Origin: an uncultured Candidatus Micrarchaeota archaeon
GTDB lineage: Archaea; Micrarchaeota; Micrarchaeia; Anstonellales; Bilamarchaeaceae
Direction of reading: 5' to 3'
NCBI GenBank assembly: GCA_903835385.1
Contig: CAILMQ010000063.1
Location: 5,234-69,233, forward strand
Length of the DNA: 64,000 bases
The position numbers and the translations under genes were made by a program. The notes under the pieces were generated by a model. The model saw only the letters and a program-made list of their open reading frames with translations. It made no database searches and had not been told where the DNA came from. How positions within the stretch are numbered: the first letter of the stretch is position 1; each line of letters begins with the position of its first letter. Below, one piece after another: positions 1-26,348 of the stretch.

Positions 1-1
1 A

Positions 2-2752
2 TATTCGCCCATATTCATGGAGCTGGACCCCTACTACTACACCTATGTCAGCCAGCAGGTCCTGGTTGGCGGGGGCAATTTCCCCAATGACCAGACCGCC
101 TGGTACCCTGACGTGATCGTGGATCACCGGGAGGTGCCGGAAATCTCCTATCTGGAGGCGACATGGTACTCGTTCTACACCGGAGGCGGGGCATACGACA
201 ACATGCTCCTGGCCGCCCTGGCATCGCTCTATCCGCCCATAGCCGCGGCATTGGCGGTGTTCTTCATCTACCTGTTCCTGTCCGCCTATTACAAGAAGGA
301 ATGGGCAGTGCTCGCGGCAGGCATCACCGCCTTCATACCCGTGTTCCTGATGAAGACCGTGGCAGGCGAGATGGAGATACAGCCCTACGCGTTCTTCTCC
401 ATCGCGTTCTTCCTCGCAATGTACGCCTCCATGCTCAGGGAGAAGCACATAAAATTCGCCTTCCTCTCGGCAATCGCATTCATAGCAATGACCCTCGGCA
501 GCGGCTCGGACCTGGTGATAATCACAGCGCTGCTGCTTTTCATCCCGCTCCAGTCGGTTTTCATCTTCCTCACGGCCGGGGAAAAGGGCAAAGAGGAGCT
601 CAGGACGCTGTGCATCAACAACGCCGTAATACTCCTGCTCGGCGTATTCCTGTTTTCCTGCGTGATAAAGGGCCTTTTCTACAATGGCGGCATTGGATTC
701 GGGCACACAATCGCCATCACCATGGCAATCGCAATCTGCGGCGCGCTCTACGCCATCCGCACCTACGTGCCTGACGCGAAGCGGGCGCGGAACATGCTCA
801 TCGCAATGATTCTCGCCGGGCTTTTCCTGTTCTTCTTCACTCCACTGGGCGATGTCGTCAGGGACATAGGCACCGCCGGCCTGGGCATAGCGCAGTTCAA
901 CGCGCCCCTCGACCGCACCATAGCGGAGCAGAACGTGGCGGGCTCGGATTTCTCAGGGGAATTCGGCTTTGTGGCAACGGCATACCCGCCGGTGATAGGC
1001 GGCGTGATGGACGTTATAACGTCCATGGTCAACACCGCCCTGGACCTGGCGGTCCGGATACTCAACTGGATTTTCAACACCAGCCTGCAATACGACCCCA
1101 AGGTCAACAGCCTGCTCATGCTCTGGCTGTTCCTGTTCGGCGCCACGCTCGCATACTCGGCCTACCGCCTGTTCAAGGGCGAGGACACGCCCGTGCTGCT
1201 CTTCGCCACGCTCATAATCCCGCCCCTGCTCGTAGGCCTGCTCAAGGCCAAATACAGCATATACTCGGGTTTCCTGCTGGCCGCGGCCATTGGATTCACG
1301 TTCGGCGAGTCCGAGCAGGCCATAACCCGGTTCCTCGCCCGTTCGGCCAAAAACGAGGATGAAAAGAAGGAGTACCTGTCCTATGCATACTACGCGCTCA
1401 CGGTCATCGCCGCCATGCTCCTCATCCTCCAGTTCACCGCAAGCGCGGGCGGCCTGTCGAAGTCGCTCGTGGTCTCCTCGCTCACGGCAACCCGGTTCCA
1501 GGACGACCCCGGGGCGCTCAAGGCGAAATTCCAGTCGCTGTGCGACGAGCTCAACTCGAAAAACATGAGCGAGCAGTCCATCTGTGACCAGTACAGCAGT
1601 TCGGGGATGGGTTTCTGCACCGCATACGACTCGCCGATTTGCACCGTCGCGGCGGACCCGGTCGCCTACGCCAGCCAGGGCACGAACAGCCAGTACAACC
1701 GCAAGCTCTGCTACTACTCGCTCATTTCCGACATACTGAACCCCAAGAACGAGGAGCTGCTTGCCGCGAACCTGAGATGCGAGCGCATATCCGAGTACTG
1801 GATAGAGTCCATGGAGTGGATAAGGTACGACACCGAGAACAATTCGCGCACCACGTCCTGGTGGGACTACGGGCACTGGATAAACTTCTTCGGCCAGAAG
1901 GACACCGTGCTCAGGAACGAGCATGCCTCCAATTTCATGATAGGCGAGGTGGCCCACGACTACATAGACGGGACCCCCGAGGACCTGGCGCAGTTCATGC
2001 GCAGCAGGAACAGCTCGTACGCCCTCTTCGACATGGAGCTCGTCGCGGGCGGCAACCCATTCGGCGGCAAATACGGCGCCCTGAACTATCTTTCCTGCGC
2101 CAGGGACAACGAGACCAACGTCTCGCTCCAGCCGGGCATGTCCCAGTGCGAGGCCGAGCACCTCTGGGAGATGGTCTACATCCCCAAGGACAGCACCGGC
2201 AGGACCTGCACCATATCCAAATCCGGGAACAAGACCGGGGTGATAGGCTACGAGGCCTACTGGACCTATGACCGCTCGGTGCAGCCCCTTCTCAGCACCA
2301 CCTACCCGAACGTCATGGGCTATAACTGCTACGGGGATCACCTCAACGACCCGACCACGCTGGCGGTATGCCAGAACATGGTCATGCTCAGGCCCACCTA
2401 CTGCGTGGGGCCCGCGCTTCTCGCGAACGGGCAGCAGACCTACGGGACCTATCTGCTCAACGAGACCTATCCGAACGGCGACCTCAAGCTCAACAAGGCC
2501 CAGCTGGTCTCGCCGCAAAGCTATGCGCAGACCTATCATCTCGGTGACGCCTACGGCGTGGCGCTCATATACAACGAGGACCCGGTGTTCCTTGAAAACG
2601 GCCAGGTGACATCCGGCTATGATGATCGGAGGACGAAATTCTACTCATCAAACATTTACCGGGCTCTGTTCGTGGGCGACCTGCCGGGCTTCAGCCTGGT
2701 TTTCCAGACCAAGGACGGCCAGGTCAAGATTTACAGGCTGAACCCGCAGTGA
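2..2752 (+). CDS. aglB: Archaeal oligosaccharyltransferase AglB (STT3 family), probably 5'-truncated by the window edge
   Basis: The frame of ORF 17..2752 stays open back to nt 2. The N-terminal half is polytopic and hydrophobic. ELDPYYY at the very start resembles the acidic first-external-loop motif of STT3, which normally follows TM1, so TM1 probably lies upstream. The canonical WWDYGHW (WWDxG) motif is present, followed by a large soluble C-terminal domain. Confidence 0.9.
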   Translation, partial: YSPIFMELDPYYYTYVSQQVLVGGGNFPNDQTAWYPDVIVDHREVPEISYLEATWYSFYTGGGAYDNMLLAALASLYPPIAAALAVFFIYLFLSAYYKKEWAVLAAGITAFIPVFLMKTVAGEMEIQPYAFFSIAFFLAMYASMLREKHIKFAFLSAIAFIAMTLGSGSDLVIITALLLFIPLQSVFIFLTAGEKGKEELRTLCINNAVILLLGVFLFSCVIKGLFYNGGIGFGHTIAITMAIAICGALYAIRTYVPDAKRARNMLIAMILAGLFLFFFTPLGDVVRDIGTAGLGIAQFNAPLDRTIAEQNVAGSDFSGEFGFVATAYPPVIGGVMDVITSMVNTALDLAVRILNWIFNTSLQYDPKVNSLLMLWLFLFGATLAYSAYRLFKGEDTPVLLFATLIIPPLLVGLLKAKYSIYSGFLLAAAIGFTFGESEQAITRFLARSAKNEDEKKEYLSYAYYALTVIAAMLLILQFTASAGGLSKSLVVSSLTATRFQDDPGALKAKFQSLCDELNSKNMSEQSICDQYSSSGMGFCTAYDSPICTVAADPVAYASQGTNSQYNRKLCYYSLISDILNPKNEELLAANLRCERISEYWIESMEWIRYDTENNSRTTSWWDYGHWINFFGQKDTVLRNEHASNFMIGEVAHDYIDGTPEDLAQFMRSRNSSYALFDMELVAGGNPFGGKYGALNYLSCARDNETNVSLQPGMSQCEAEHLWEMVYIPKDSTGRTCTISKSGNKTGVIGYEAYWTYDRSVQPLLSTTYPNVMGYNCYGDHLNDPTTLAVCQNMVMLRPTYCVGPALLANGQQTYGTYLLNETYPNGDLKLNKAQLVSPQSYAQTYHLGDAYGVALIYNEDPVFLENGQVTSGYDDRRTKFYSSNIYRALFVGDLPGFSLVFQTKDGQVKIYRLNPQ

Positions 2753-2893
2753 AGCGACGGATGCGCCAAAAAAACAAAAAGCGCGAGCGCTCGCGGGCAT
2801 TTGAAGAACGGGACGGGCGACCACGGAAATCAGGTGTCTGTTTAGAAAGTCTTTAAATGCTCAAGAAAGAAACTTCAGTTAGAGGGTGGCAGA

Positions 2894-3109
2894 ATGAAAA
2901 GGGAAAGTTTAGTGGTGATTCTTACTGAAGAAGGCAAACTTGACTCACTGATGATCGCGTCTCGTGCCTCTAGAGAGGATATCGAACTCGCACTTTCCGA
3001 AACTTACTCGCTAAATGGCATTCAATGGATGGAGATACGCAAAGTTTCAATGCAATCCCTGAAAGCACTCAATAAAGCATTTGGCAAAAGGTACACTACG
3101 CACTCATGA
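2894..3109 (+). CDS. Hypothetical small protein (71 aa) in the AT-rich islet
   Basis: ATG start preceded by GAGGGTGG (Shine-Dalgarno-like). Same strand as, and 35 nt upstream of, the DpnI-like gene. No recognisable motif. Confidence 0.35.
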   Translation: MKRESLVVILTEEGKLDSLMIASRASREDIELALSETYSLNGIQWMEIRKVSMQSLKALNKAFGKRYTTHS

Positions 3110-3143
3110 AAGATTAATAAGTTGCTGACTTGTTTTAAGCTGT

Positions 3144-3917
3144 ATGGACCTTGATTTGCATGATACCTGGGTTTTAACAAATTATAAAAGTCCTTCACAA
3201 CAAGCCCGTTTGATTACAGAACGGTGGTTCGCTTCGCAGATGTACTGCCCCAATTGTCTGAATTTGCATATTACCCCCGCGGAAACCAATGCTAAAGTTA
3301 TTGATTTTTTATGCAAGAACTGTGCCCATGAGTTTCAGCTCAAAAGTAAGAAAAGCAAAATATCTGGCAAGATAACCGATGGTGCATATCGTCCAATGAT
3401 TGAGAGGATTGAAGCCAATACTGCGCCAGACTTTTTCTTTATGGAATATTTGCCAGAAGAATGGATGGTGAAGAACCTTTTTCTTATACCGCGTTTTTTC
3501 ATGAATAAAACGATAATAGAAAAACGGCGCCCGCTCTCGAGCACTGCTGAAAGAAGAGGGTGGATTGGTTGTAACATCCTGTTTTCAAAAGTGCCGGAAG
3601 AAGGCCGAATAGCCGTAATCAAAGATGAGACCGCTATTCGAAAAGAAGATGTCCAAAAAAAATATCGAGCACTGGCCTTTTTGGACTCAAAAAACTACGC
3701 CCAGCGAGGGTGGTTTGCAGATGTTTTATATTTCGTAAGAAAATTGGACTCAAAATCCTTCAGTTTGAGTGATATGTACGGGTTTGCAGATGAATTGGAA
3801 AAATTACATCCCGAAAATAAGCATATCCATGAGAAGATACGGCAGCAACTGCAAATACTGCGAGACCGCCGTATCCTGCACTTTGACGGGAACGGAAGAT
3901 ACAGTATCGTAAAATAA
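3144..3917 (+). CDS. DpnI-family type IIM (methyl-directed) restriction endonuclease
   Basis: From memory, it is collinear with S. pneumoniae DpnI. Shared elements: YKSPSQQARLITERW, CPNC...CKNC zinc site, FQLKSKK, DGAYRPM, APDFFF, ERRGWIGCNI, and a C-terminal winged-helix tail ending HEKIRQQLQILRDRRIL..GRY. Length (257 aa) is similar. The gene is markedly more AT-rich than its flanks. Confidence 0.85.
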   Translation: MDLDLHDTWVLTNYKSPSQQARLITERWFASQMYCPNCLNLHITPAETNAKVIDFLCKNCAHEFQLKSKKSKISGKITDGAYRPMIERIEANTAPDFFFMEYLPEEWMVKNLFLIPRFFMNKTIIEKRRPLSSTAERRGWIGCNILFSKVPEEGRIAVIKDETAIRKEDVQKKYRALAFLDSKNYAQRGWFADVLYFVRKLDSKSFSLSDMYGFADELEKLHPENKHIHEKIRQQLQILRDRRILHFDGNGRYSIVK

Positions 3918-4028
3918 GGGTCAGTGTTTTCGCTGCCAGGTATTTATGGCATTATGGTGTCTATTCGCTTTTTACAAAGAACATAGTGGAGAAGCGACGA
4001 ATAACCGAACTAATGAGAATATGTAAGT

Positions 4029-6278
4029 TTATTGCAGCAGCTTGGACTTCTTCTTCCACTCCTCGATGGTGTCCTTGAACTTCTCGCGCGGTATGAAAAG
4101 CGCGCTGTCCGTATCCTCGTCCTTCATGATTACGAACACCAGCCTGTCGCCCACCGCGGCGAAGCTGGAGAGCTCGGCATGCCCGAGGGATTTGGCGAGC
4201 GAGCGCAGGTAGCCCCGCAGCTTGAGCGAGAGCGCCGCAGGGACCGTTGCTGCGCCCCGCGCCATGTGCGCCGCCGCCAGCTCGTCCTTGCGGATGACAA
4301 TGGCCCCTTCGAGCAGCCCGTGAGCCACCATGCCGGCGATGAGCGATTCGGAGGTGACCTTCTTCTTCTTTATCCCATCATGCTCGAACACAACGCCTTC
4401 GGCGGCGTGTTCCCTCGCATAGCGCGACAGGCACCATGCCCGCAGCGAGGCGGGCACGGTGATGAGCGAGCTTATATCCACCTCGTCCTGCTCGGCAAGC
4501 AGCTGGTTTATGTGCTCAGACCATTTCGGCCAGCTCGCATCCGCAGTCTTCTTCCTCTCCGCGAGCCGTTCGATGGCGCTCTCCACGTCGCCCAGGTCCT
4601 TCTCTATCATCTTCTTGCTGTCCGGCGTCATTTTCCTGGCGGACTCGTCCACCCTCTCCGGGGAGATGGAGGCCAGTATGTCGTACTCCGCGCTCACATC
4701 GAACTCCTCCCTGGAGCAGGCGTCCACCAGCTGCTGGAGTTCCGTAATCTTGTCCTTGACGCTGGCCGCCCTGGCGATGAACAGGTCCTTCTCCTCCCGT
4801 ATCACAACCCCGTAAATCCTTTCCAGCGCCATTATCTTCAGCCGGTTCTCCAGCGCAGTGTAGAGCAGGAAAAGGCCGATGAACATGCAGCCCACGCTCA
4901 CGAGCGACGCGGCCGCGTTTATGCTCAGGACGAGCCCGGTGAAATAATCCACCGAGCTGAACAGGGAGCTCGGGGCCGTCGCGTCCGGCGCCACGAACGC
5001 CGCCACGTAATAGCCGATGACGAGCAGGACGATGCCGATGATGGCGTCAGTCTTCCAGCGGGGCTCCGCCTTGCCGATGGCCTTGCGGACTCCGGCCATC
5101 ACGCCCAGCTTGTTCATCTCTGCCCATGCCACATTATATGCGATGGCCAGCAGGTTGACCGCTATCATGAGGATTATGAGCGTGAGCGAGAGCGATATGC
5201 CGAGCGCTATGAAGAAGCTGCCCGTGATGCCGTAGAGGATGTTGAACAGTGAGTCGGGCACTATGAAAAGCCTGAGGTCAAGCTTGTTCACCACGAACGC
5301 GGGGGAATGCAGGCCTGCCACAAGCTCTTCGGGCAGCCTGGCTGACTTGAACCTGTACGCCATCATGTCGCCCGAGGACGTCGTCCGTTCCGAATCCCAG
5401 TCTATGGTGTAGGCGGAGCCGTTCCTGGCAACCTTTATCAGCTGGTTGGAGCTCAGGTTGTCCTCGCTTGCCAAAAATCCAGGCGGGATGGTGTCCGCGA
5501 GCTCCACGTTGCTGCCGGGTTCGCCATTGGTCCAAACAGTGACGAAATAGTTGTAGCTCGCAGGCCGGGCTTCGTAGGTGCCTATCTGGCCCGCTGTGGA
5601 GGCGAGCATGTCCGCCCCTACATCCGTCCTTGTGCAGAGCAGCAGTTGCTGGCTGTTGTACATCGGGTTGCTGTACATGTCGGCCATGGCCCCGACCAGG
5701 CCGAGCACCTTGTTGAGATAGGCGTTCTTTTCGTCCACCGACGCGTTCCTCTGCCTGATGATTTCGTCGCGCACCTGGAAGAAAATCCCGTCCATGCGGT
5801 TCCTGTCGTTTACGAATTCCACCATCGAGGCGGGCACCGCGTCCTGGTAGCCGGTGAGCAGCTTGTTGCATTTGTAGGCGCCCTTGCACAGCGCGGTGCA
5901 GGTGCTGACGTCGGTGCAGTCCTTCTTCAATCCGGCGTTGGCCGCGCACGCCTCGAAGGCGAGGGAAGAGTCTCCCGAAACCGCATCAAGATTCGAGCGC
6001 ATGGTCACGAGCTGGAGGTCGCTGAGGTTCTTGAAGGACGTGTAAGCGGCAGTGTTGTGCACCGCCACCGCGATTTGCCTCCTTATGGTGTGGCCTTCCA
6101 CAGTGACCGGGTAGAAATCATAGACCATGAGGTCCGTCGCCCCGTCCCCGTCCAGGTCGTACTTCTGCGTATTGAATACGGTTTCCTGCTTCGTCTCGGG
6201 ATAGGCCTTGGTTATGGTGCAGCCGTATGCCATTGACAGGGCTAGCACGGCTAGGAGGATGAGGGCCGGATTGCGCAT
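4029..6278 (-). CDS. Large membrane protein with lipoprotein-like signal peptide, function unknown
   Basis: N-terminus MRNPALILLAVLALSMAYGC resembles a signal peptide with lipobox Cys. A DLDGDGATD Ca-binding-like loop is present. A Cys-rich extracellular region is followed by a cluster of TM helices mid-protein and a charged, coiled-coil-like C-terminal domain. Confidence 0.6.
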   Translation of the reverse strand: MRNPALILLAVLALSMAYGCTITKAYPETKQETVFNTQKYDLDGDGATDLMVYDFYPVTVEGHTIRRQIAVAVHNTAAYTSFKNLSDLQLVTMRSNLDAVSGDSSLAFEACAANAGLKKDCTDVSTCTALCKGAYKCNKLLTGYQDAVPASMVEFVNDRNRMDGIFFQVRDEIIRQRNASVDEKNAYLNKVLGLVGAMADMYSNPMYNSQQLLLCTRTDVGADMLASTAGQIGTYEARPASYNYFVTVWTNGEPGSNVELADTIPPGFLASEDNLSSNQLIKVARNGSAYTIDWDSERTTSSGDMMAYRFKSARLPEELVAGLHSPAFVVNKLDLRLFIVPDSLFNILYGITGSFFIALGISLSLTLIILMIAVNLLAIAYNVAWAEMNKLGVMAGVRKAIGKAEPRWKTDAIIGIVLLVIGYYVAAFVAPDATAPSSLFSSVDYFTGLVLSINAAASLVSVGCMFIGLFLLYTALENRLKIMALERIYGVVIREEKDLFIARAASVKDKITELQQLVDACSREEFDVSAEYDILASISPERVDESARKMTPDSKKMIEKDLGDVESAIERLAERKKTADASWPKWSEHINQLLAEQDEVDISSLITVPASLRAWCLSRYAREHAAEGVVFEHDGIKKKKVTSESLIAGMVAHGLLEGAIVIRKDELAAAHMARGAATVPAALSLKLRGYLRSLAKSLGHAELSSFAAVGDRLVFVIMKDEDTDSALFIPREKFKDTIEEWKKKSKLLQ

Positions 6279-6315
6279 GGCGAACCTTTATTAGATTACG
6301 TTTAAATCCTTTACC

Positions 6316-7632
6316 ATGCCTTCCCATTTGTTCAGAGACGTGCTTGAGCGGATACGGCCCTCCAGGAAGGAGCGCGAGGAGGAGCTGCTGGTCGCCAGGC
6401 GCCTGATACGGAAGGTGGCCTCCGTGCGGCCAAAAGGCTGCAGGGTGGTGCTCACGGGCTCTGTCGCCAAGGGCACGTTCCTTCGCGATTCCAAGGACAT
6501 AGACGTGTTCGTGCTTTTCAGCCGCACCTTCCCGAAGTCGGGATTCGAGCCCGCCATCGAAGCGATGGTGAAGAAGGCGTTTCCGGGCCTTGGCTACAGG
6601 CTGAGCTATGCCGAGCACCCATATGCAAGGTTCCATTTCCAGGGCAGGCGCATAGACCTGGTGCCTGCCTACGCAATAAAAGGGGCGCAGGAGCGGCTGA
6701 GCGCGGTGGACCGCTCCGTGCTCCATACGAAGTACGTGCTCGGCAACATGGGCGCACGGCAAAAAGACGAGGTGCTCCTCCTCAAGCAGTTCCTGAAGGC
6801 GAACGGCCTCTATGGCGCGGAAATAAAGGTGGAGGGGTTCTCCGGCTACCTCTGCGAGCTGCTCGTAGTGCAATACGGCTCCTTCGCGAGGCTGCTCTCG
6901 GCCGCATCCTGCTGGAAGCTTCCGCTGCTCGTGGACCCGAAGGGGTTGTATCGCAGGGCTGGCAAAAAGGAGCGGGAGGCGCTGTTCGCGGGTTTCGGCT
7001 CCGATTTCCTGGTGATAGACCCGACAGACAGGGACAGGAACGTGGCGGCAGCGGTTTCAGGGGAAAACGTCGCGCGCTTCGCCGGCCTTGCCAGGCGGTT
7101 CCGGAAGCGGCCGTCCGCCGGTTTCTTTTTCAGGACGCAACCCTCCTTCGCCGGGAGGGCCGCCGCCCTCGCCTCCAGGGGCCATGCATACGTAATCAGC
7201 CTGATGAAGCCGGATGTGGTGGACGACGTGCTCTGGGGCCAGCTCAAGAAGGCCATGAAGCAGCTGTCCGCCCGGCTCATGGAAGACGGTTTCCGGTCCC
7301 GCGTCCCGGGTTTTGGCATGGAGGCCGACGATTCCGGAGGCCTGCTGAGAATCGCATTTTCCGTTGAACAAGACCTGCTCCCCAGGTCCGCAATGGTGGA
7401 AGGCCCCCCTATTTCCATGCTCCAGCCCACGCTGAACTTCATGAGGCATCACGCCCATGCCAAATTCGCGAGGAAGAGGGGCAGGATATCCGCGGTCGTG
7501 CGGCGCGCGATACGGATGCCGGAACAGTCCGTGGATGCAGTCTTCTCGTCAATGTGCGGGAAGGGGAAATCGCATTTGTTTTACCCGCTGTCGGTGGCGA
7601 AGGTGCCGAAGCCGGAAAAGAAGCGAAGATGA
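6316..7632 (+). CDS. cca: CCA-adding tRNA nucleotidyltransferase (archaeal class I)
   Basis: The motif GSVAKGTFLRDSKDIDVFVLF is the class-I nucleotidyltransferase signature. Length and architecture (438 aa) are typical of archaeal CCA enzymes. The tRNA in this window lacks an encoded CCA. Confidence 0.85.
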   Translation: MPSHLFRDVLERIRPSRKEREEELLVARRLIRKVASVRPKGCRVVLTGSVAKGTFLRDSKDIDVFVLFSRTFPKSGFEPAIEAMVKKAFPGLGYRLSYAEHPYARFHFQGRRIDLVPAYAIKGAQERLSAVDRSVLHTKYVLGNMGARQKDEVLLLKQFLKANGLYGAEIKVEGFSGYLCELLVVQYGSFARLLSAASCWKLPLLVDPKGLYRRAGKKEREALFAGFGSDFLVIDPTDRDRNVAAAVSGENVARFAGLARRFRKRPSAGFFFRTQPSFAGRAAALASRGHAYVISLMKPDVVDDVLWGQLKKAMKQLSARLMEDGFRSRVPGFGMEADDSGGLLRIAFSVEQDLLPRSAMVEGPPISMLQPTLNFMRHHAHAKFARKRGRISAVVRRAIRMPEQSVDAVFSSMCGKGKSHLFYPLSVAKVPKPEKKRR

Positions 7633-7769
7633 GCTACGGTACGTACGGAAAGTACGCAAAAGGATAATTCAACAAAAACTTCAAGGTTCGAGCAGTTCGC
7701 GAATCAATAGCGAGGTCCGCGAGACCGAAGAATCGGGCGCGAGCTCGTTTCGAGCGAACGATAAGCGAA

Positions 7770-7785
7770 TTTTTTTTTATTTTTT
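7770..7785 (+). terminator. T-tract (T9 A T6), candidate archaeal terminator downstream of cca
   Basis: Long oligo-T run on the + strand in the gap between the convergent cca and beta-CASP genes. Confidence 0.35.
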
Positions 7786-7811
7786 AGGCGAATCAAGGGT
7801 AAGTCAAGCCG

Positions 7812-9059
7812 CTACAATTCCAGCCTTTCGCCCGTCTTGGGAGCCACGGCATCATAGCCGAAGTCGTCCCGCAGCTCGGTGGCGAACCTTTCGGTTTCGT
7901 CCCCGTGCACGAGGACTATGCGCCCGGGGTTGGCCCATTTTATGAAGTTCAGCAAATCCGCCCTGCCTGCGTGCGCGGAAAGGTCGAAATACTCAACCGG
8001 CAGGTCCACCTCCAGGTCCCGCTCGTCCACCGTGATGTAGCCGTCCTTCTGGAGCTTCCAGCCGTTCGTGCCCTCGATGCAGTATCCCGTGAACACCACC
8101 CTGGAGTCCTGGTTGACATTGAACAGGTAATTCAGTATCGGGCCTCCGGACAGCATGCCTGCCGACGAGATTATCACCCCTGGCGTCTGGACCGCCTCCC
8201 GCTTGTCGTTGGGGCCCCGCACCATAGTTGCGCTCCTGACCGCCTTCTTGAAAAAGTTCGGGTCCTTGAGGTACTTCGGGTGCTTCATGTAGATGTCGGT
8301 TATTTTCCTGCCCATGCCGTCCACATATATCGGGACCCGCGGCTCGTGCTTCCGCACGAGCGATAGGAGCTCCTGGGTCCTGCCCAGCGAAAACGAGGGG
8401 AACAGCATGGTGCCGCCCTCCTTCACCGTCGCCCTCACCTCGTCCATGACCTGCTTCTCCACCTCCGCCCTGGGCGGGTGGTCGCGGAACGCGTAGGTGC
8501 ACTCTATTATCAGGGTGTCCACGTCCTCCACGGGCCTGGCGCCGCGGTGCATGCAGGTCTCCTCCATCTTCAGGTCGCCGGTATAGCAGATGGTCTTTCC
8601 CCCGTGCTCTATGTTCACTATCGCCGCGCCGGATATGTGGCCGGCGTCGCTCAGGGTTATCTTCGTGTCCCCGGTGTGGAGCGTCTGCCCGTACATGACC
8701 GGCGTCCAGTCCTTGAGAGCCTTATTCAAATGGCTGTCCTGGTAGGGGAGCTGGGGGCCCATGATTTTCATGGAGTCGGCCCAGAGCAGCTCGCAGAATT
8801 CCACCGTAGGCGGAGTGGCATACCACCGCAGCCTCTTGTTGCCCTTGTAAAGCGCGGGTACGAATCCGGAATGGTCCAGGTGGGCGTGGGATATCACCGC
8901 GAAATCGGGATTTATACCCTCGAGCGGGAACTGCGGCTGGCCTGTCTTGTCGAATATCTTCACGCCGTAGTCAAGAAGCACTTTTTTGTCGGTCTGGAGA
9001 AGGAAGGCGCTCCGGCCCACTTCCCCTGATGCGCCGTAGCAGTCAAGATGTATGGTCAT
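7812..9059 (-). CDS. Metallo-beta-lactamase / beta-CASP family ribonuclease (aCPSF2-like)
   Basis: HAHLDHSG metallo-beta-lactamase motif. About 415 aa with a beta-CASP-like C-terminal half. The ORF-track start at 9068 is TTG; the first ATG is at 9059 (MTIHLDCYG...). Confidence 0.8.
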   Translation of the reverse strand: MTIHLDCYGASGEVGRSAFLLQTDKKVLLDYGVKIFDKTGQPQFPLEGINPDFAVISHAHLDHSGFVPALYKGNKRLRWYATPPTVEFCELLWADSMKIMGPQLPYQDSHLNKALKDWTPVMYGQTLHTGDTKITLSDAGHISGAAIVNIEHGGKTICYTGDLKMEETCMHRGARPVEDVDTLIIECTYAFRDHPPRAEVEKQVMDEVRATVKEGGTMLFPSFSLGRTQELLSLVRKHEPRVPIYVDGMGRKITDIYMKHPKYLKDPNFFKKAVRSATMVRGPNDKREAVQTPGVIISSAGMLSGGPILNYLFNVNQDSRVVFTGYCIEGTNGWKLQKDGYITVDERDLEVDLPVEYFDLSAHAGRADLLNFIKWANPGRIVLVHGDETERFATELRDDFGYDAVAPKTGERLEL

Positions 9060-9113
9060 ACACCACAATTACCTGTGCAATGTTTATATTGTTTTCCGAT
9101 TCTAACTCCGAAT

Positions 9114-9518
9114 ATGCCAGACCTCCGGGACGTGCTAAAGAACCTTTACATGTCGGTAGCGCTCCTCTGCATAATTTATGTCGTGGGAACGGTATTCTAT
9201 CACCACGTCGAGGGATGGTCCTACCTGGACTGCGTATACTTCATCACCACGACCGTGGCGACAGTCGGCTATGGGGACCTCCACCCGGTAACCCCTCTGG
9301 GCAAAATGTTCACCATAGGCCTTATACTCGTCGGAGTGTCCATCGCGCTGTCGGCGATTTATTCCATAGCGGCCTACCGCGAACGGACCTTCGACCAGCA
9401 GCTACTGAACAGGCTGTCCATACTCCGGAACCTCACATCGCTCCATGGCCTCCGCCACGAGGACAAGAAGAAGCCCAAGTTCCTCCAGTCCCTTGGCCAA
9501 AAAATCGGCGAAGTCTGA
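9114..9518 (+). CDS. Minimal two-TM potassium channel (KcsA-like pore)
   Basis: TTVATVGYGD selectivity filter flanked by two hydrophobic helices. The ATG at 9114 avoids overlap with the divergent gene that starts at 9059. Confidence 0.75.
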   Translation: MPDLRDVLKNLYMSVALLCIIYVVGTVFYHHVEGWSYLDCVYFITTTVATVGYGDLHPVTPLGKMFTIGLILVGVSIALSAIYSIAAYRERTFDQQLLNRLSILRNLTSLHGLRHEDKKKPKFLQSLGQKIGEV

Positions 9519-9523
9519 TTCAG

Positions 9524-10207
9524 ATGCCATACCAGGGGAAATTCTCCAGGAATTTTCCATCGCTCAGTGCGAAACAGCAGGCGAAAGTACGAAGCTCGCG
9601 TTTCTGCATCATCGGGCTCGGGGGAACGGGCGGATTCGCGCTGGAATGCCTCTCGCGCCTGGGCGCGGAACATTTCGTTTTTTTCGACCATGACCGGTTC
9701 GGGCTGACGAATTTCAACAGGCAGCTTCTTGCGACGGACAATGCCCTTGGCATGAGAAAAACAGATGCCGCAATCTCCCGCGCCCGCTCCATAAACAAAA
9801 AAATAAAAATAAAAAAATACGGCGCGTTCGGTTCGAAAAGCGCGACATTAATTGCCAGCTGCGACATAGTCCTTGACTGCACGGACAGGTTCGCCACGAA
9901 GCTTCTCATCGCGGAATCGTGCCGCAGGGCCGGAGTTCCGTACGTCTTCTGTTCGGCACAGGGCACCCGCGGCATGGTGAGCGTTTTTGCGGGCTATCCC
10001 TTTGCGAAGGCGTTCCAAACCAATGAAAAAAAACCCACCTCCAAATCCTGCGCCTCCATACTTTGCCCGGCCGCCGCCCTCGCAGGCACGCTCGCCGCAG
10101 TGCAGGCCCTGGACCTGGCAATCGGCAAACCGGCAATCCGCGCCCCGAATGCGCTGTTTTTTGATATCTTCGACAGAAGGTTATTCTGGAAAGCGAGGCT
10201 CGGATAA
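9524..10207 (+). CDS. ThiF/MoeB/HesA-family E1-like adenylyltransferase
   Basis: IIGLGGTGG dinucleotide-binding loop followed by FDHDRFGLTNFNRQ. The true start is probably MPYQGKF at 9524; the upstream part of ORF 9029..10207 overlaps the K-channel gene. Confidence 0.75.
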   Translation: MPYQGKFSRNFPSLSAKQQAKVRSSRFCIIGLGGTGGFALECLSRLGAEHFVFFDHDRFGLTNFNRQLLATDNALGMRKTDAAISRARSINKKIKIKKYGAFGSKSATLIASCDIVLDCTDRFATKLLIAESCRRAGVPYVFCSAQGTRGMVSVFAGYPFAKAFQTNEKKPTSKSCASILCPAAALAGTLAAVQALDLAIGKPAIRAPNALFFDIFDRRLFWKARLG

Positions 10208-21818: not shown

Positions 21819-22332
21819 GACGTTTTCGGATGTCGACATAAGGGAATACCTGAAGAAAGGCGCCATAAGGATAGAGCCGCTGGACGAGGCCCAGATAGGG
21901 CCGGCGTCCGTGGACCTCACGCTCAGCGACGAGTGGTATTTCTTCAAGGCCAAATACAAGGGAAAGCGGGTGGACCTGTCCAAAACGCCCTTTACCGAGG
22001 CCTACAGCATGAGAAAGGCCGCCAGCATCGAGCTCAAGCCGGGCGAGATGTGCCTGGGGAAGACCGTGGAAAAGGTCACGCTGGCGCCCAACATCATCGG
22101 CAAGCTGGAAGGGCGGTCGCGCTACGCCCGCATGGGGCTCATCATCCACATCACGGCCGCCGTGGTCCAGCCAGGGAGCGACAACCACCAGGTGCTGGAA
22201 ATCGTCAATCTCGCACCGTTTCCCGTGGTGCTCAGGGCCGGGATGAGGATATCCCAGATACTTTTCGAGGAGCTCAGGAGCCCCACGTCACGGCCCTATG
22301 CGAAGTACGGGGAGATAGCCAAGAGGCAGTGA
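21817..22332 (+). CDS. dcd: dCTP deaminase
   Basis: MTFSDVDIREYLKKGAIRIEP...GPASVDLTL and the later GRSRYARMGL motif are typical of Dcd. GGAGG lies 10 nt upstream of the ATG at 21817. Confidence 0.85.
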   Translation: MTFSDVDIREYLKKGAIRIEPLDEAQIGPASVDLTLSDEWYFFKAKYKGKRVDLSKTPFTEAYSMRKAASIELKPGEMCLGKTVEKVTLAPNIIGKLEGRSRYARMGLIIHITAAVVQPGSDNHQVLEIVNLAPFPVVLRAGMRISQILFEELRSPTSRPYAKYGEIAKRQ

Positions 22333-22342
22333 GGACGAGCGA

Positions 22343-22984
22343 ATGCCCAGATTCAACATTCCGCACTTCAATCTACAGGACCAGAAGCTCATACTCGCAA
22401 CCGTAATACTGGTGCTGATACTGGTGTTCGCGTCCCTGACGCTCAAGCCCCAGCTCGACAACCCGCAATTCGTGGCCAGGGAAGCGCCGCTTCTGAAAAA
22501 CGCGAAGCTGGCAATATCACCGGGCGAGAGCTATACCTATGAGTACACCATGGGGAATGCCTCGGCCAACCTCACCTATGTCATCCTGGGCGGCAATGGC
22601 TGCACCGTGATAGCCCTCGCCGAAGCCCAGGGGGCGTCCGTATGCGTGGACAAGGGGGGCAATGACGCCACCATGCAGAACGCCAGCTACGGGGTGCCAA
22701 CCATAATCCTGACCCGGCCCTGGATGCTCGCAGTGCATGGGGGATGGCGCTGGAACGTCTCAAATTACATGATGTTCGGCACCTGGGGGAAGCATCTGGT
22801 GGACACGAACTACACCGTTGTCAGGGAGGAGGACTACCGGGGCAGGGACGCCTACGTGGTAAGGGTGGAATCCAGCGAGGGGAACCTGGCCATGGACTGG
22901 GTGGATGCGGAAAAGAGGATACTTCTCAGGGAAGCCGGCCAAGGCTACGAGATTGTGCTCACCGAAGGGCTTCCATTGAACTGA
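22343..22984 (+). CDS. N-terminally membrane-anchored hypothetical protein
   Basis: One TM helix (LILATVILVLILVFASLTL) followed by a soluble domain containing N-x-S/T sequons. Confidence 0.5.
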   Translation: MPRFNIPHFNLQDQKLILATVILVLILVFASLTLKPQLDNPQFVAREAPLLKNAKLAISPGESYTYEYTMGNASANLTYVILGGNGCTVIALAEAQGASVCVDKGGNDATMQNASYGVPTIILTRPWMLAVHGGWRWNVSNYMMFGTWGKHLVDTNYTVVREEDYRGRDAYVVRVESSEGNLAMDWVDAEKRILLREAGQGYEIVLTEGLPLN

Positions 22985-22996
22985 TGAACGGAGTTC

Positions 22997-23167
22997 CTAG
23001 CCCCGCATGACGGAGAGCGGGAGCACCTTTTTTTCGAGTTCCAGCTCTGCCACGTTTATGAAGCTCATCTCCTGCCCCGGCTTCACCAGCGGCGGGGCTC
23101 CGGTGGCCAGCTGCAGCGCCCGTGCGCCGATTATGCGCGCGAGCTCGTATTTCGTCAGGTCTTCCAT
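22997..23167 (-). CDS. rpoK: DNA-directed RNA polymerase subunit K (Rpo6/omega-like); absent from the ORF track because it is under 60 aa
   Basis: Hand translation of the - strand gives MEDLTKYELARIIGARALQLATGAPPLVKPGQEMSFINVAELELEKKVLPLSVMRG followed by a stop (56 aa). LTKYE.ARIIGARALQL..GAP is the RpoK/Rpb6 signature. Confidence 0.8.
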   Translation of the reverse strand: MEDLTKYELARIIGARALQLATGAPPLVKPGQEMSFINVAELELEKKVLPLSVMRG

Positions 23168-23201
23168 AAAGTTCACTACTCAATTAGCGGAATCACTATG
23201 C

Positions 23202-24362
23202 CTACAAAACAATATAAACATTGCCCTTTTTGCTGATGGTGAGCGCGGTTTCCCCTGAGAACTCGAACGTCTTGACGTATCCCTTGACTATGCGTATCTT
23301 CACGCCGGCCTTCACTCCGCTGCCCCTGCCGTCGAACAGGTACACCACACCCTCGTTGCCCTCCTCGTCGTTCACCAGCATGCGCGTGACCGTGCCCTTC
23401 ACTTTCTTGCTCTTTTCATATTCCATGCTTTCCGCTTCCTTCACGAGCAGGTCCTCGGTGTTCACGTTGCGCATGCCATTCCTTATCTTGGTGATATGGG
23501 TGATATTGGTCTCCTTGAACCTCTTCCTCGCGAGCGTGTAGGCGAGCTTGACATCGTGTTTCGCGTTCTTGATCGCCCGCTCCATCTCGTGCTTCATTAT
23601 CTCGTCATCGCCGTCCGAAAGCATCATGGCCTCATAGGCCTTCTTGAAAACAGTGTCCGGCAGCCTTTCCACGGTGATGTCCTGCCTTCTTTCCGTGACT
23701 TCCTCGGCCGCCTCTATCTCGCCCACTTCCCGGGCGACCATCTCGAACTGCTTCTCCTTGGTCGCCACCTCGCCCAGCTCGTCCGCCAGCTGCTCGCGCA
23801 CCTGGAACTCGTCCGGAACCGCGTCTCGTTTATCCTCGGCCTCGGGCCGTGGCGGCGTCATCTCCCCGACATCCGAAACCGCCTCCAGGTATGACGTCAG
23901 GAACTCCTGCATGGCCTGCCTGCCTGACTCCTCGGTGGGTTCCCTTTCGCGGTCTTCAACGGTCTTCATGTATATCTTTTCTATGGCCGGCATCATCTTC
24001 TGCCTCACGCGGTCGGCCTTCTCCTTGCCCAGCCTTTTTTCGAACAGCATGGTTATGGGCTGAAGCACCTTCTCCTTGGTGTCCATGGGCTGGTTGGCGC
24101 CGCGGGGCTCCTCCTTCCTGCCGCTGGAGAACATCTCCGCAAACGACATGACCTCCTTCTCGCTCCTCTTCTTCTGGTCCAATATGTCCTGGGCTATCGT
24201 CTTTACTGTTGGGTCCTTGTCATAACTGAGCTCCACGAGGGCGAAAAGCGCGGCCGGGTCGTCCAGCGCGCCCAGCGATTTGGCAGCCTCCCTTCTGACC
24301 TTGGGGCTTTCATCGAAAGTGAGCGAAACGAGCTTGTTGAGCGACGGCGGCGCGGACTGCAT
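23202..24362 (-). CDS. HEAT-repeat protein with acidic linker and C-terminal beta-rich (OB-like) domain
   Basis: DESPKVRREAAKSLGALDDP..LVELSYDKDPTVKTIA are HEAT/PBS-lyase-type repeats. The track start at 24401 is TTG; the first ATG is at 24362. Confidence 0.6.
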   Translation of the reverse strand: MQSAPPSLNKLVSLTFDESPKVRREAAKSLGALDDPAALFALVELSYDKDPTVKTIAQDILDQKKRSEKEVMSFAEMFSSGRKEEPRGANQPMDTKEKVLQPITMLFEKRLGKEKADRVRQKMMPAIEKIYMKTVEDREREPTEESGRQAMQEFLTSYLEAVSDVGEMTPPRPEAEDKRDAVPDEFQVREQLADELGEVATKEKQFEMVAREVGEIEAAEEVTERRQDITVERLPDTVFKKAYEAMMLSDGDDEIMKHEMERAIKNAKHDVKLAYTLARKRFKETNITHITKIRNGMRNVNTEDLLVKEAESMEYEKSKKVKGTVTRMLVNDEEGNEGVVYLFDGRGSGVKAGVKIRIVKGYVKTFEFSGETALTISKKGNVYIVL

Positions 24363-24402
24363 GAGGGCACCCTTGTGATTCCGGTTATATCTCCGCAACA
24401 AA

Positions 24403-25476
24403 CTATTTAAGCGTGCCTACCTTTTCCAGCACGAGCTCCAGCTCCTGCTGCGTGAAGTTGCCGATGTGGCAGATTCGTATCATTTTCTCCTTGGTTTCAC
24501 CCATTCCGGTCGCGATCTCAATGTCATATCTCTCGCGCATCTGCTTCTTGATTTCCTTTGCCTTGTCTGTCCAGAGCGCGGTGATGGTGTTGGAGCGGAA
24601 ACCCGGCTCCGCGACGACCCCCATGTTATTCATTTGCGCCCATTCCTGCGTGAACTGCGCCGCCTTCATGTGCCTATGTTCGCAGCCCCTGGGCCCTCCC
24701 TCGGCATCCAGATGGCCGAACGCGGCCTTGAGTGCGAAATAAAGCGAGACCGCGGGCGTGAAGGGGGTCTGTTTCTTTTCCACAAAGAATTTCCTGTGCT
24801 TTTTCATGTTCATGTAAAAGGACGGAATCGGCTCGGCGCGCTTTTCGCTGAATTCCGCGCCCTCCTTGCTCACTGCGAGCATGGCGATTCCCGGAGGTGC
24901 CGCTATCGCCTTCTGGGAGCCTGTGGAGAAGAAGTCAATGCCCATGGCCTTGATGTCCAGCTCTGTCGCGGGCCAGGCCGACACGCCGTCGATTATCGTG
25001 CGCATGCCCTTCTTCTTCGCATAGAGGCAGATTTCCTTTATGTGGTTTCGCGTCCCGTTGGAGGTTTCGTTATACACCATGCCAAAAACACCAACACCCC
25101 TCGCGCTCGAATCATCTATAATCGCCTTGGTGCGCTCGAGATTCCATCCTTTTCCGATTTCGGTTTTTTGTTCCTCGACATTGTCGCAATGCACGCGCGC
25201 TATCTCCGCGAACCTCTTCCCGAACTCGCCGTTGGCGAGCGTGAGCATCCTGTCGCCACGCCTCACGCAGTTGAGGATGTTCATCTCTATGCCGAGCGTG
25301 CCCGAGCCCGTGACCAGGTATGCCTCCTGGGCGTTGGTGTATTTCTTGAACCGCTCCACGAGGCCTCCGTACAGCTCGCTCCACCGCTGCTCGCGGTGCG
25401 ATATCATCTCCTGCGACTGCGCGATGCGTATCTCGTCTGTCAGCTTAACCGGTCCGGGGGTGAATAGCATGGTCAT
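24403..25476 (-). CDS. Class V (AGXT/SerC-like) pyridoxal-phosphate aminotransferase
   Basis: N-terminal LFTPGPV, then GSGT, DGVS, and SGSQKA (PLP-lysine motif). About 357 aa. Confidence 0.8.
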   Translation of the reverse strand: MTMLFTPGPVKLTDEIRIAQSQEMISHREQRWSELYGGLVERFKKYTNAQEAYLVTGSGTLGIEMNILNCVRRGDRMLTLANGEFGKRFAEIARVHCDNVEEQKTEIGKGWNLERTKAIIDDSSARGVGVFGMVYNETSNGTRNHIKEICLYAKKKGMRTIIDGVSAWPATELDIKAMGIDFFSTGSQKAIAAPPGIAMLAVSKEGAEFSEKRAEPIPSFYMNMKKHRKFFVEKKQTPFTPAVSLYFALKAAFGHLDAEGGPRGCEHRHMKAAQFTQEWAQMNNMGVVAEPGFRSNTITALWTDKAKEIKKQMRERYDIEIATGMGETKEKMIRICHIGNFTQQELELVLEKVGTLK

Positions 25477-25547
25477 TTTAATCACCTGAGGGACTTTAGA
25501 ACGAGAAAACGATAAAAGGGGCGCGGTTCAAGCCCAGCCCGTTGAAG

Positions 25548-26348
25548 TCAGTATATTACTACAACCGGCTCGTAGTACTTGCGCACGTTGCCGCTGTAGG
25601 CGCGGCGCTTGAGCATCTCCATCATTTCCTTTTTCGCCGCCTCGCGCTCGAAGTGCAGCCAGCCGAGCTTCATGTTGAGCCGTATTATCCTGCCCGGAAT
25701 CAGGTGCCTGGTGGACTTGGGCGGGAACGGGGCATGGTCTTTGGCGGATTTCACTATCTCTTCCTTTGTGTAGGGCCTCCTGTAAAGGGCAGTGTATCCC
25801 CGCCCAAGCCACTGGTCCAGTTCGTTGTCATGGACATAGGTCACGTCCGCATCGCTGAAAAGGGAGAGCAGGAACACCTGTTCCTCCACCATCTCGCGGA
25901 GCTTGTATTTGCCCGGGTTGAGCAGGAACGCGGCCTTTGACTTCCTGCTGAATGCGGCAAAGGGCGCCCGCGTGGCCCCAACGGCCGCAACGGCAGCGGA
26001 GCGGTCCGCCTTCTCGGCCTTGACATTTGCCATTTTGATTATTTCCTCAGGCTCCTTCTTCACCACCGGCAGCCAGGTTCCGACCTTTATCTCCGGGTTC
26101 TGGTAATCCACCACCTGGCATGCGGAATTCGGGCACTCTATTATCTCCAGCACCTTGAGCCTGTGGTTGCCGTCCAGCACCACGTTGGTTTTGCCATCCA
26201 CTATCAGGGGGTCCACCAGGTGCCCGATGTTGAGCATGCCCTCCTTCAGGCGCTTGAGGTTCTTGGATATGGTCTGCTCGTGGCTGAGCAGGTCCTTGGT
26301 CGGTCTCACGTCCAGCACGGACATCAGTTCTTCAGGCAGGTCTTCCAT
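25548..26348 (-). CDS. ParB/sulfiredoxin-fold protein (possible small-molecule kinase such as SerK; unverified)
   Basis: LVDPLIVDGKTNVVLDGNHRLKVLE is a ParB-like N-terminal domain motif. The start was chosen at MEDLPEEL (26348). Confidence 0.6.
   Translation of the reverse strand: MEDLPEELMSVLDVRPTKDLLSHEQTISKNLKRLKEGMLNIGHLVDPLIVDGKTNVVLDGNHRLKVLEIIECPNSACQVVDYQNPEIKVGTWLPVVKKEPEEIIKMANVKAEKADRSAAVAAVGATRAPFAAFSRKSKAAFLLNPGKYKLREMVEEQVFLLSLFSDADVTYVHDNELDQWLGRGYTALYRRPYTKEEIVKSAKDHAPFPPKSTRHLIPGRIIRLNMKLGWLHFEREAAKKEMMEMLKRRAYSGNVRKYYEPVVVIY

Follow-up and report, generated by a model that had tools for sequence, protein, structure and literature searches.

A solitary DpnI-family endonuclease gene and its conserved 71-residue partner in an inserted, AT-rich islet of a Micrarchaeota genome

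The window analysed here is a 64,000-nucleotide stretch of a contig from an uncultured Candidatus Micrarchaeota archaeon. Close to its left end, an AT-rich islet lies between an aglB-like gene and a gene for a large membrane protein. The features of the locus are as follows.

17 to 2752, plus strand: aglB-like oligosaccharyltransferase gene, the left flank; its 5' end lies beyond the window, and its product has a WWDYG motif and weak AglB_core/STT3 core matches
2779 to 2795, no strand: GC-rich palindrome GCGCGAGCGCTCGCG with A/T runs on either side, just past the aglB stop; terminator-like match
2841 to 2858, plus strand: BRE/TATA-like promoter motif TTTAGAAAGTCTTTAAA; the ATG of orf71 follows about 35 nt downstream
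2894 to 3109, plus strand: orf71, a small conserved protein of 71 aa, the DpnI partner; predicted fold beta-beta-alpha-beta-alpha
3144 to 3917, plus strand: DpnI-family type IIM endonuclease, 257 aa; PD-(D/Q)XK domain with a Cys4 Zn site, then a C-terminal winged-helix domain
3918 to 4028, no strand: 3' end of the islet, AT-rich and containing the T-runs GTGTTTTCGC and CGCTTTTTAC; no homology to the sister cassettes
4029 to 6278, minus strand: 749-aa membrane protein, the right flank; a conserved family-level gene

The AT-richness that had been noticed by eye was confirmed by measurement: the GC content of 2760–4028 is 41.6%, against a mean of 56.9% over equally long genome windows (z = −4.45), of which only 0.38% have GC as low. 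The GC break is sharp on both sides. The low-GC stretch of the islet proper begins at about 2830, and the palindrome at 2779–2795 is probably host DNA and a terminator, because GC is still high there. orf71 and the DpnI gene are the only ORFs of the islet. On its left side the mobile module is bounded by the BRE/TATA-like motif at 2841–2858, a putative archaeal promoter; motifs of the same kind (TTAGAAAGgTTTTAAA or GGAAAGCTTTTAAA) lie upstream of orf71 homologues in L162, L168, L163, L165/166 and L040. Nucleotide homology to the sister cassettes on contigs L036 and L037 spans only about 2857–3925, stopping a few bases past the DpnI stop codon.

Direct evidence for insertion came from a closed genome of the same genus, G002, in which aglB and the 749-aa gene are convergent with 64 bp between them, and the empty site shows neither a GC dip nor restriction-modification (R-M) genes. 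Because the flanking genes are only 64 bp apart in this genome, the islet is a true insertion, and the horizontal acquisition originally suggested by base composition gains an empty-site control. The 749-aa gene has orthologs in 12 of the 13 genomes searched, its own included (11 of 12 relatives), with 75% identity in G002, and its product gave no match to Pfam or PADLOC. The islet sits within an 81-kb contig, and 100%-identical contigs from independent peat and freshwater-sediment metagenome runs cross both junctions. With its two ORFs the islet carries no integrase, and no tRNA gene was found in 1–10000. The best flanking repeat, a 12-nt pair at 2751–2762 and 3991–4002 (11 of 12 nt matching), was considered as a target-site duplication and rejected, since many chance pairs are as good.

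The 3144–3917 product is a full-length member of the DpnI family, as first proposed from its motifs. It matches PF06044 (DpnI; 6.5e-64, 215.4 bits with a cut-off of 26.7, residues 7–182 on profile positions 6–182 of 183), PF17726 (DpnI_C; 4.2e-26, 91.4 bits with a cut-off of 23, residues 187–253), the PADLOC profile mREase_II (1.3e-79) and the solved R.DpnI structures 4ESJ/4KYW (2.9e-69, residues 5–254); NCBIfam and PHROGs searches with the protein gave no match. Residues are numbered here on R.DpnI, with roles taken from two structural studies (PMC3424567 and PMC4117772). Catalytic E25, D53 and K66 are kept as E26, D54 and K67. The two CXXC pairs of the Zn site, which has a structural role in R.DpnI (PMC3424567), are C35-x2-C38 and C57-x2-C60 in the window protein's own numbering and are invariant in all 121 aligned sequences, which comprise R.DpnI and 120 database sequences, the window's own among them. 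The GATC base contacts N48, R126 and R135 and the methyl-binding cleft L129, R135, W138 and G140 (PMC4117772) are identical in the window protein, and the DNA-binding K229 and R231 of the winged helix are kept there and in 121 of 121. The claim of a motif-for-motif match thus stands for the Zn, recognition and winged-helix residues and for the C-terminal 'EKIRQQLQILRD', which is present; it does not stand for the EXK glutamate, which is Gln65. Comparison with the copy on L036 gave a dN/dS of 0.10, so the gene is under purifying selection. No methyltransferase gene adjoins it, and the description as a solitary type IIM gene is accurate.

All of the closest homologues of the window protein come from DPANN archaea. 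Several of them carry the NCBI names "DpnI domain-containing protein" or "restriction endonuclease" already. An archaeal DpnI is thus not noteworthy in the way the original prediction held, on the view that the family is mainly bacterial. In the tree, the window protein falls in a well-supported clade of Micrarchaeota sequences, nested in a larger Micrarchaeota/Iainarchaeota group, with further DPANN homologues from Nanoarchaeota, Woesearchaeota and Pacearchaeota nearby. Together with the conserved BRE/TATA-like motif, this placement suggests that the cassette is of archaeal provenance. Persistent Dam-like GATC methylation is known from several archaeal taxa (PMC10609329). Among the 41 genomes surveyed, DpnI occurs in three and never alongside a strong Dam; strong D12 methyltransferases occur in 7 of the 40 relatives, and three of these seven, all of the same family, have complete DpnM-DpnII-DpnA-like cassettes (PF04556, 6e-91). 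DpnII cassettes and DpnI are mutually exclusive across the 41. One DpnI-positive relative, G013, has a divergent D12-class methyltransferase (9e-17).

The expectation that the host lacks a Dam-type methyltransferase was upheld: neither a D12-class Dam (PF02086) nor a phage-type Dam (PF05869) was found in this Micrarchaeota metagenome-assembled genome (MAG), which is 88.8% complete, and no Dam-type enzyme was found in two genomes of the same genus. Because the genome is only 88.8% complete, a Dam gene could lie on the missing DNA. A methyltransferase motif scan of all ORFs returned only two Eco57I/type IIG-like genes and one weak N6_N4 candidate, a 400-aa SPPY protein on contig C47 that is below threshold for PF01555 and unlike DpnA-like enzymes beyond the motifs. 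GATC sites do occur in the host sequence, at 115 and 122 where two had been reported near nt 113–126, and once inside the islet, at 2953. The observed/expected (O/E) ratio of GATC is 0.21 in this genome, and depletion is order-wide, at 0.09–0.9 in relatives from which 20–400 kb per genome was sampled. We dropped a causal link in which carrying DpnI brings about extreme GATC depletion or requires it, because genomes with DpnII, genomes with Dam alone and genomes lacking both are depleted too; the DpnI-positive G013 has a ratio of 0.72.

Taken together, we consider it likely that the islet is a horizontally inserted orf71-DpnI cassette that provides R.DpnI-like defence against Dam-methylated DNA. 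A cassette of about 1.1 kb (roughly 2830–3925) with its own archaeal-type promoter would have landed where, in a DPANN genome, aglB and the conserved membrane-protein gene converge with their 3' ends. [quoted passage not shown] The few GATC sites of the host would stay unmethylated, and hence uncut, because the host has no Dam-type methyltransferase, and incoming DNA from Dam-methylating sources would be destroyed. Possible sources are viruses or plasmids grown in any of the numerous Micrarchaeota relatives with DpnII-type or Dam systems, or in other Dam-positive archaea and bacteria. Points that count against this reading are the loss of activity in the E64A mutant of R.DpnI, the incompleteness of the genome, the N6_N4/SPPY and type IIG-like enzymes in it, the D12 methyltransferase of G013, and the failure to find an integrase, a tRNA or convincing terminal repeats at the insertion.

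The small gene upstream of DpnI had been described as an orphan. While the ORF is there, it is not an orphan: a homologue lies directly upstream of DpnI in eight further loci, and the arrangement holds in 9 of 11 distinct clade loci examined, with the partner confined to the closest DpnI sub-clade. Homologues are 72, 68 and 67% identical, and only about 8 small-protein clusters were found among 1.84 billion representatives. A dN/dS of 0.32 relative to L036 places orf71 under purifying selection. No match was found in Pfam, NCBIfam, PHROG or PADLOC. The AlphaFold model (pLDDT 72) gave no significant PDB match in a fold search, the best being T7 Gp2 (E = 0.17, TM 0.45). Other small phage inhibitor and antitoxin folds appeared at a similar noise level. 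In L038, L169 and L002, DpnI is preceded by ORFs of 64, 73 and 87 aa, none of which is an orf71 homologue. In L040 an orf71 homologue precedes a type IIG enzyme; no orf71 paralogue was found upstream of this genome's own type IIG gene.

On the sister contigs L036 and L037, the same orf71-DpnI module, with a DpnI 86% identical to that of the window, lies between two gene stumps. The Dam stump, a 61-aa 5' part, shares 79% identity with L024's intact Dam, and the second stump, 72 aa from the 5' end of a convergent 176-aa PD-(D/E)XK-like gene, shows 67% identity. Relatives G015 and G039 have both genes, Dam and PD-(D/E)XK-like, intact, and on L036 and L037 the module physically replaces the inner halves of this pair. 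On L163, the orf71 homologue carries 14 aa of a Dam N-terminus (EEAKPFVKWASGK) as an in-frame fusion. These loci, along with the mutual exclusion of DpnII cassettes and DpnI, could mean that the cassette is mainly selfish, spreading by displacing Dam/nuclease (DpnII-like) loci, with the window copy having landed secondarily in neutral intergenic DNA and defence being a by-product. DpnI occupies a former Dam/GATC R-M locus on L036/L037 and L163 but not in the window, where a tblastn search of the islet turned up no remnant of a Dam or nuclease gene, and G002 has no R-M genes at its empty site. Such stumps are also missing around the module in at least six different genomic settings. A selfish cassette would also be compatible with a defence function, so that the emphasis alone shifts. 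On balance we regard a mainly selfish cassette as unlikely.

Given that orf71 lies upstream of DpnI in 9 of 11 loci and is once fused in frame to a Dam stump, and given its purifying selection and its lack of relatives in known families or solved structures, it may be a new DpnI-dedicated partner. It might, for example, be an establishment controller or inhibitor that restrains the nuclease until an invaded Dam-methylated genome has lost its methylation, so that orf71-DpnI could overwrite GATC R-M loci in Micrarchaeota. This is a doubtful proposal, and any regulatory role for orf71 is a guess.

A different concern is the active site. The middle EXK residue, E64 in R.DpnI, is Q65 in the window protein (QLK), and the enzyme might therefore be impaired or altered, a methyl-GATC binder or a nickase in place of a double-strand endonuclease. 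However, Gln is the majority residue, in 96 of the 121 aligned sequences with Glu in the other 25, and the Gln forms occur in archaea and bacteria; (Q/E)XK is therefore the family's own consensus. A QXK active site is also present in HinP1I. The case for impairment comes from the E64A substitution, which kills the activity of S. pneumoniae R.DpnI. On the other side, PD-QXK is a recognised variant among Mrr-type nucleases (PMC11037411), the remaining catalytic and recognition residues are invariant, and the selection noted above is strong. The QXK variant would thus be expected to be active, and an impaired enzyme is improbable.

R.DpnI-like defence is also to be set against a role in symbiosis. 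Micrarchaeota are DPANN episymbionts with reduced genomes (0.8–1.6 Mb in all 40 relatives searched), and the known hosts of cultivated members are Thermoplasmatales. The nuclease might distinguish the episymbiont's own DNA from that of a GATC-methylating partner, with imported host DNA cut for nucleotide salvage or to keep out host-derived elements, and Thermoplasma species are reported to methylate GATC (PMC11033074). However, a core symbiosis function fits poorly because DpnI has a patchy distribution (3 of 41 genomes) and was recently acquired; we consider this very improbable. Although a sharp GC break on both sides is what an assembly or binning artefact would give, a bacterial fragment chimerically joined to an archaeal contig is hardly credible with an islet inside an 81-kb contig, identical junction-crossing contigs from independent peat and sediment runs, Micrarchaeota genes as nearest relatives and an archaeal promoter motif.

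Under the preferred reading, R.DpnI-like defence by an inserted cassette, the islet belongs to a common type of defence islet, and its DpnI gene holds no surprise, with dozens of DPANN homologues already in public databases. Its value is as a clean, well-bounded case of a methylation-dependent restriction gene gained by a DPANN archaeon, backed by an empty-site control, independent metagenomes and a predicted archaeal promoter. New here are orf71 as a conserved DpnI partner, the Dam/nuclease stumps on sister contigs, the DpnII cassettes in the family and the order-wide depletion of GATC. The opposed DpnI/DpnII logic of the pneumococcus recurs within one family of ultra-small, strongly GATC-depleted archaea, and such opposed GATC systems are relevant to the way in which symbionts with reduced genomes keep incoming DNA in check.

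The closest characterised system is R.DpnI of S. pneumoniae (dpnC, type IIM; PDB 4ESJ, 4KYW). The two proteins share a two-domain architecture, similar length (257 and 254 aa) and about 50% identity end to end, as well as the Cys4 Zn site, E25/D53/K66, N48/R126/R135, L129/R135/W138/G140 and K229/R231. The window protein differs in its Gln for the EXK glutamate, its Micrarchaeota host and its predicted archaeal promoter. The gene order also differs: the pneumococcal DpnI cassette has dpnD downstream, whereas here the partner is the 71-aa ORF upstream. That small ORF resembles the controller (C) proteins of type II R-M systems in lying immediately upstream of a restriction gene in the same orientation, and a homologue precedes the type IIG enzyme of L040, but its predicted beta-beta-alpha-beta-alpha fold is not a helix-turn-helix, and searches by sequence and by structure gave no match. 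At the level of populations, there is a parallel with the DpnI/DpnII cassettes of S. pneumoniae, since DpnM-DpnII-DpnA-like cassettes and DpnI both occur in one archaeal family, but never in the same genome. There is a further parallel with the neisserial dam-replacing gene (drg/NmeBII), in that the sister-contig modules replace parts of a Dam/nuclease pair; Pfam names PF06044 the "Dam-replacing family". Unlike drg and the DpnI/DpnII cassettes, the window copy lies between aglB and the membrane-protein gene and not at a former Dam locus. The annotated DpnI proteins of DPANN archaea (Micrarchaeota, Diapherotrites/Iainarchaeota, Nanoarchaeota, Woesearchaeota and Pacearchaeota) are 55–88% identical to the window protein and form one clade with it (SH-aLRT 97); they are likewise solitary, with GC below that of their flanks, and differ from it in nothing of substance.

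The original prediction of a DpnI-family endonuclease at 3144-3917 was borne out, with full-length matches to Pfam (DpnI, 6.5e-64; DpnI_C, 4.2e-26), to the PADLOC entry "type II methyl-directed restriction enzyme" (1.3e-79) and to the R.DpnI structure in the PDB (4ESJ/4KYW, 2.9e-69, residues 5-254).

3144-3917: DpnI-family endonuclease, 257 aa, full-length by Pfam, PADLOC and PDB matches

Residues were compared across 121 aligned sequences, comprising R.DpnI of Streptococcus pneumoniae and the best 120 database sequences, the window's own protein among the 120, with residue roles taken from earlier work on R.DpnI (PMC3424567, PMC4117772). Catalytic residues E25 (the upstream Glu), D53 (the "PD" Asp) and K66, the four zinc cysteines, the guanine/base contacts N48, R126 and R135, the methyl-cleft residues L129, R135, W138 and G140, and K229 and R231 of the winged helix are all kept in the window protein and near-invariant in the family. 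The predicted likeness to DpnI therefore stood for the catalytic, zinc, GATC and methyl residues but missed the sole exception among the published residues: E64 of the EXK motif is Gln65 in the window protein. The substitution E64A abolishes activity of the pneumococcal enzyme (PMC3424567, PMC4117772). Because Gln is the majority state at this position (96/121 aligned sequences) and PD-QXK sites are on record in Mrr-type nucleases (PMC11037411), Gln65 is read from the alignment as a natural active-site variant rather than a sign of decay. A dN/dS of 0.10 against an 86%-identical copy on contig L036 indicates that the gene is under strong purifying selection. Elsewhere in the family, the homologues of a Woesearchaeota MAG (L013) and an Acidobacteriaceae MAG (L015) each align as two overlapping pieces and are thus probably frameshifted pseudogenes.

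Evidence that the surrounding islet (2760-4028) is an insertion came from base composition and from a related genome. Its GC content is 41.6%, compared with a mean of 56.9% (sd 3.4) for same-size genome windows (z = -4.45), only 0.38% of which are equally low, in agreement with the AT-richness first noted. In G002, a closed same-genus genome, aglB converges with a 75%-identical ortholog of the 749-aa gene, only 64 bp away and without a GC dip. Nucleotide homology to the sister cassettes on L036 and L037 is limited to ~2857 to ~3925, ending a few bases past the DpnI stop codon. The islet is an insertion, and these data support the proposed horizontal arrival. An assembly artefact was ruled out as the origin of the join, since both junctions are crossed by short contigs that match at 100% and come from independent runs, on sediment in a 2020 study and on peat in studies of 2020 and 2025. 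No integrase, tRNA or convincing terminal repeat was found at the islet. The two Eco57I/TaqI_C-type (type IIG-like) restriction-modification genes of the host genome (G000) also lie within low-GC islets, and islets of this kind number ~13 in G000.

G000 C8:1-3970: type IIG-like islet, 34.8% GC
G000 C32:about 22000-25600: type IIG-like islet, 39.6% GC

The host is a Micrarchaeota (DPANN) archaeon, whose assembly (1.29 Mb, 68 contigs, 56.7% GC, 88.8% complete) includes the window as C63:5234-69233; genome size is 0.8-1.6 Mb in every one of the 40 relatives searched. The window's sequence was found again in peat and freshwater-sediment metagenomes. As had been expected, neither a D12-class (Dam) methyltransferase nor a phage-type Dam was found in this 88.8% complete genome, and D12 enzymes were likewise absent from two same-genus genomes. 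Outside type IIG a single candidate DNA methyltransferase was found, which falls below the N6_N4_Mtase family cut-off and resembles DpnA-like enzymes in the catalytic motifs only. When every ORF of at least 120 aa in G000 was scanned for motifs, no further methyltransferase emerged.

G000 C47:56385-57600: putative DNA methyltransferase, 400 aa, SPPY motif, weak N6_N4_Mtase match

No palindromic tetramer is more under-represented in G000 than GATC, with 842 sites observed and 3929 expected under a Markov model (O/E 0.21); CTAG is also low (O/E 0.34). Across sampled stretches (L041-L159) of the 40 relatives, GATC O/E lay between 0.09 and 0.9, and a single value exceeded 1. The ratio was 0.12 and 0.72 in the DpnI-carrying genomes G040 and G013, 0.64 in G002, which has neither system, and 0.18-0.82 in genomes with DpnII cassettes. 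Depletion is thus order-wide and not linked to present-day carriage of DpnI, DpnII or Dam, which led us to reject it as an effect of the window's DpnI gene. We read it as a long-lasting mark left on the lineage by GATC-directed restriction pressure.

The 71-aa ORF (orf71, 2894..3109) proved not to be the orphan it was first taken for: it has homologues at 72/68/67% identity, and in loci with DNA to examine the gene lies 18-49 nt upstream of DpnI and co-oriented with it (in the window and on stretches L036/37, L173, L162, L163/164, L165/166, L167 and L168). It is absent from this position in L038/39 and L169-172. The family is small; of 1.84 billion representatives searched with its profile, only ~8 small-protein clusters matched. 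In a single case (L040, 631-3455), a 63-aa homologue directly precedes a type IIG Eco57I/MmeI-like enzyme instead of DpnI. That enzyme closely resembles a 1032-aa gene on C32 of G000, upstream of which no orf71 copy was found. The dN/dS of orf71 is 0.32, and its AlphaFold model (beta-beta-alpha-beta-alpha, pLDDT 72) has no significant PDB neighbours. Our best guess, held with low confidence, is a regulatory or nuclease-restraining role. A second family of small ORFs upstream of DpnI carries the C-terminal motif ...DAKK-FPEFKEFF-MEG-FFGDF....

2841-2858: BRE/TATA-like archaeal motif TTAGAAAGnTTTTAAA, kept upstream of orf71 homologues
L167 326-643: second small ORF family, ahead of orf71
L169 183-404: second small ORF family, replacing orf71 in L169-L172

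On the metagenomic contigs L036 and L037, the orf71-DpnI module sits between the 5' stumps of two genes (L036 2706-2891 and 3953-4171): 61 aa are left of a Dam gene and 72 aa of a convergent 176-aa PD-(D/E)XK-like gene. Genomes G015 and G039 keep this gene pair intact, with identities to the stumps of 79% for Dam and 67% for the PD-(D/E)XK-like gene. On L163 (5001-5267), a 14-residue Dam N-terminus is joined in frame to an orf71 homologue. The stumps and the fusion show that the module can replace GATC methylase/nuclease loci. No Dam/nuclease remnant is present in the window, so such a replacement did not happen there. Two neighbourhoods have further features. A 484-aa GGDEF-domain gene (L036 848-2302) adjoins the cassette on an otherwise Micrarchaeota-like contig; the description of GGDEF proteins in archaea is recent (PMC13725321). 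On L163 (2781-4798; Micrarchaeota contig JAPLWU010000036.1), genes with AbiJ_NTD4 and RelA_SpoT domains adjoin the orf71-DpnI pair, which suggests a small defence island.

The view that DpnI is unusual in archaea did not hold. A tree of 86 homologues places the window protein, along with NCBI-annotated Micrarchaeota proteins, in a clade of 11 members (SH-aLRT 97) that is nested in a larger Micrarchaeota/Iainarchaeota group; other DPANN phyla lie elsewhere, and the pneumococcal enzyme lies among bacterial sequences, far from this clade. Several of these proteins carry the NCBI label "DpnI domain-containing protein". Surveys of archaeal R-M systems report widespread GATC methylation and do not cover DpnI-type enzymes (PMC10609329, PMC11033074). 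Archaeal DpnI is already known in kind, the window gene being one more member, and the point of interest left is the role of orf71.

Within the order, DpnI occurs in 3/41 genomes (G000, G013 and G040), with a different genomic neighbourhood in each. DpnI-positive G013 also has a four-gene cluster (L098, G013:C20, 12906-17166), in which a 562-aa ATPase-like protein and two unknown proteins are encoded alongside a divergent 353-aa D12-class methyltransferase (DPPY); the cluster may be a separate defence system. Strong D12 methyltransferases occur in seven other genomes, three of which, from the same Micrarchaeota family, have complete cassettes (G012, L018; G007, L020; G018, L023) of a DpnM-like D12 methyltransferase, a DpnII endonuclease (PF04556, 6.4e-91) and a DpnA-like N6_N4 methyltransferase. 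Since none of the seven has DpnI, complementary DpnI and DpnII states, as in S. pneumoniae, recur here as the same opposition among genomes of one Micrarchaeota family.
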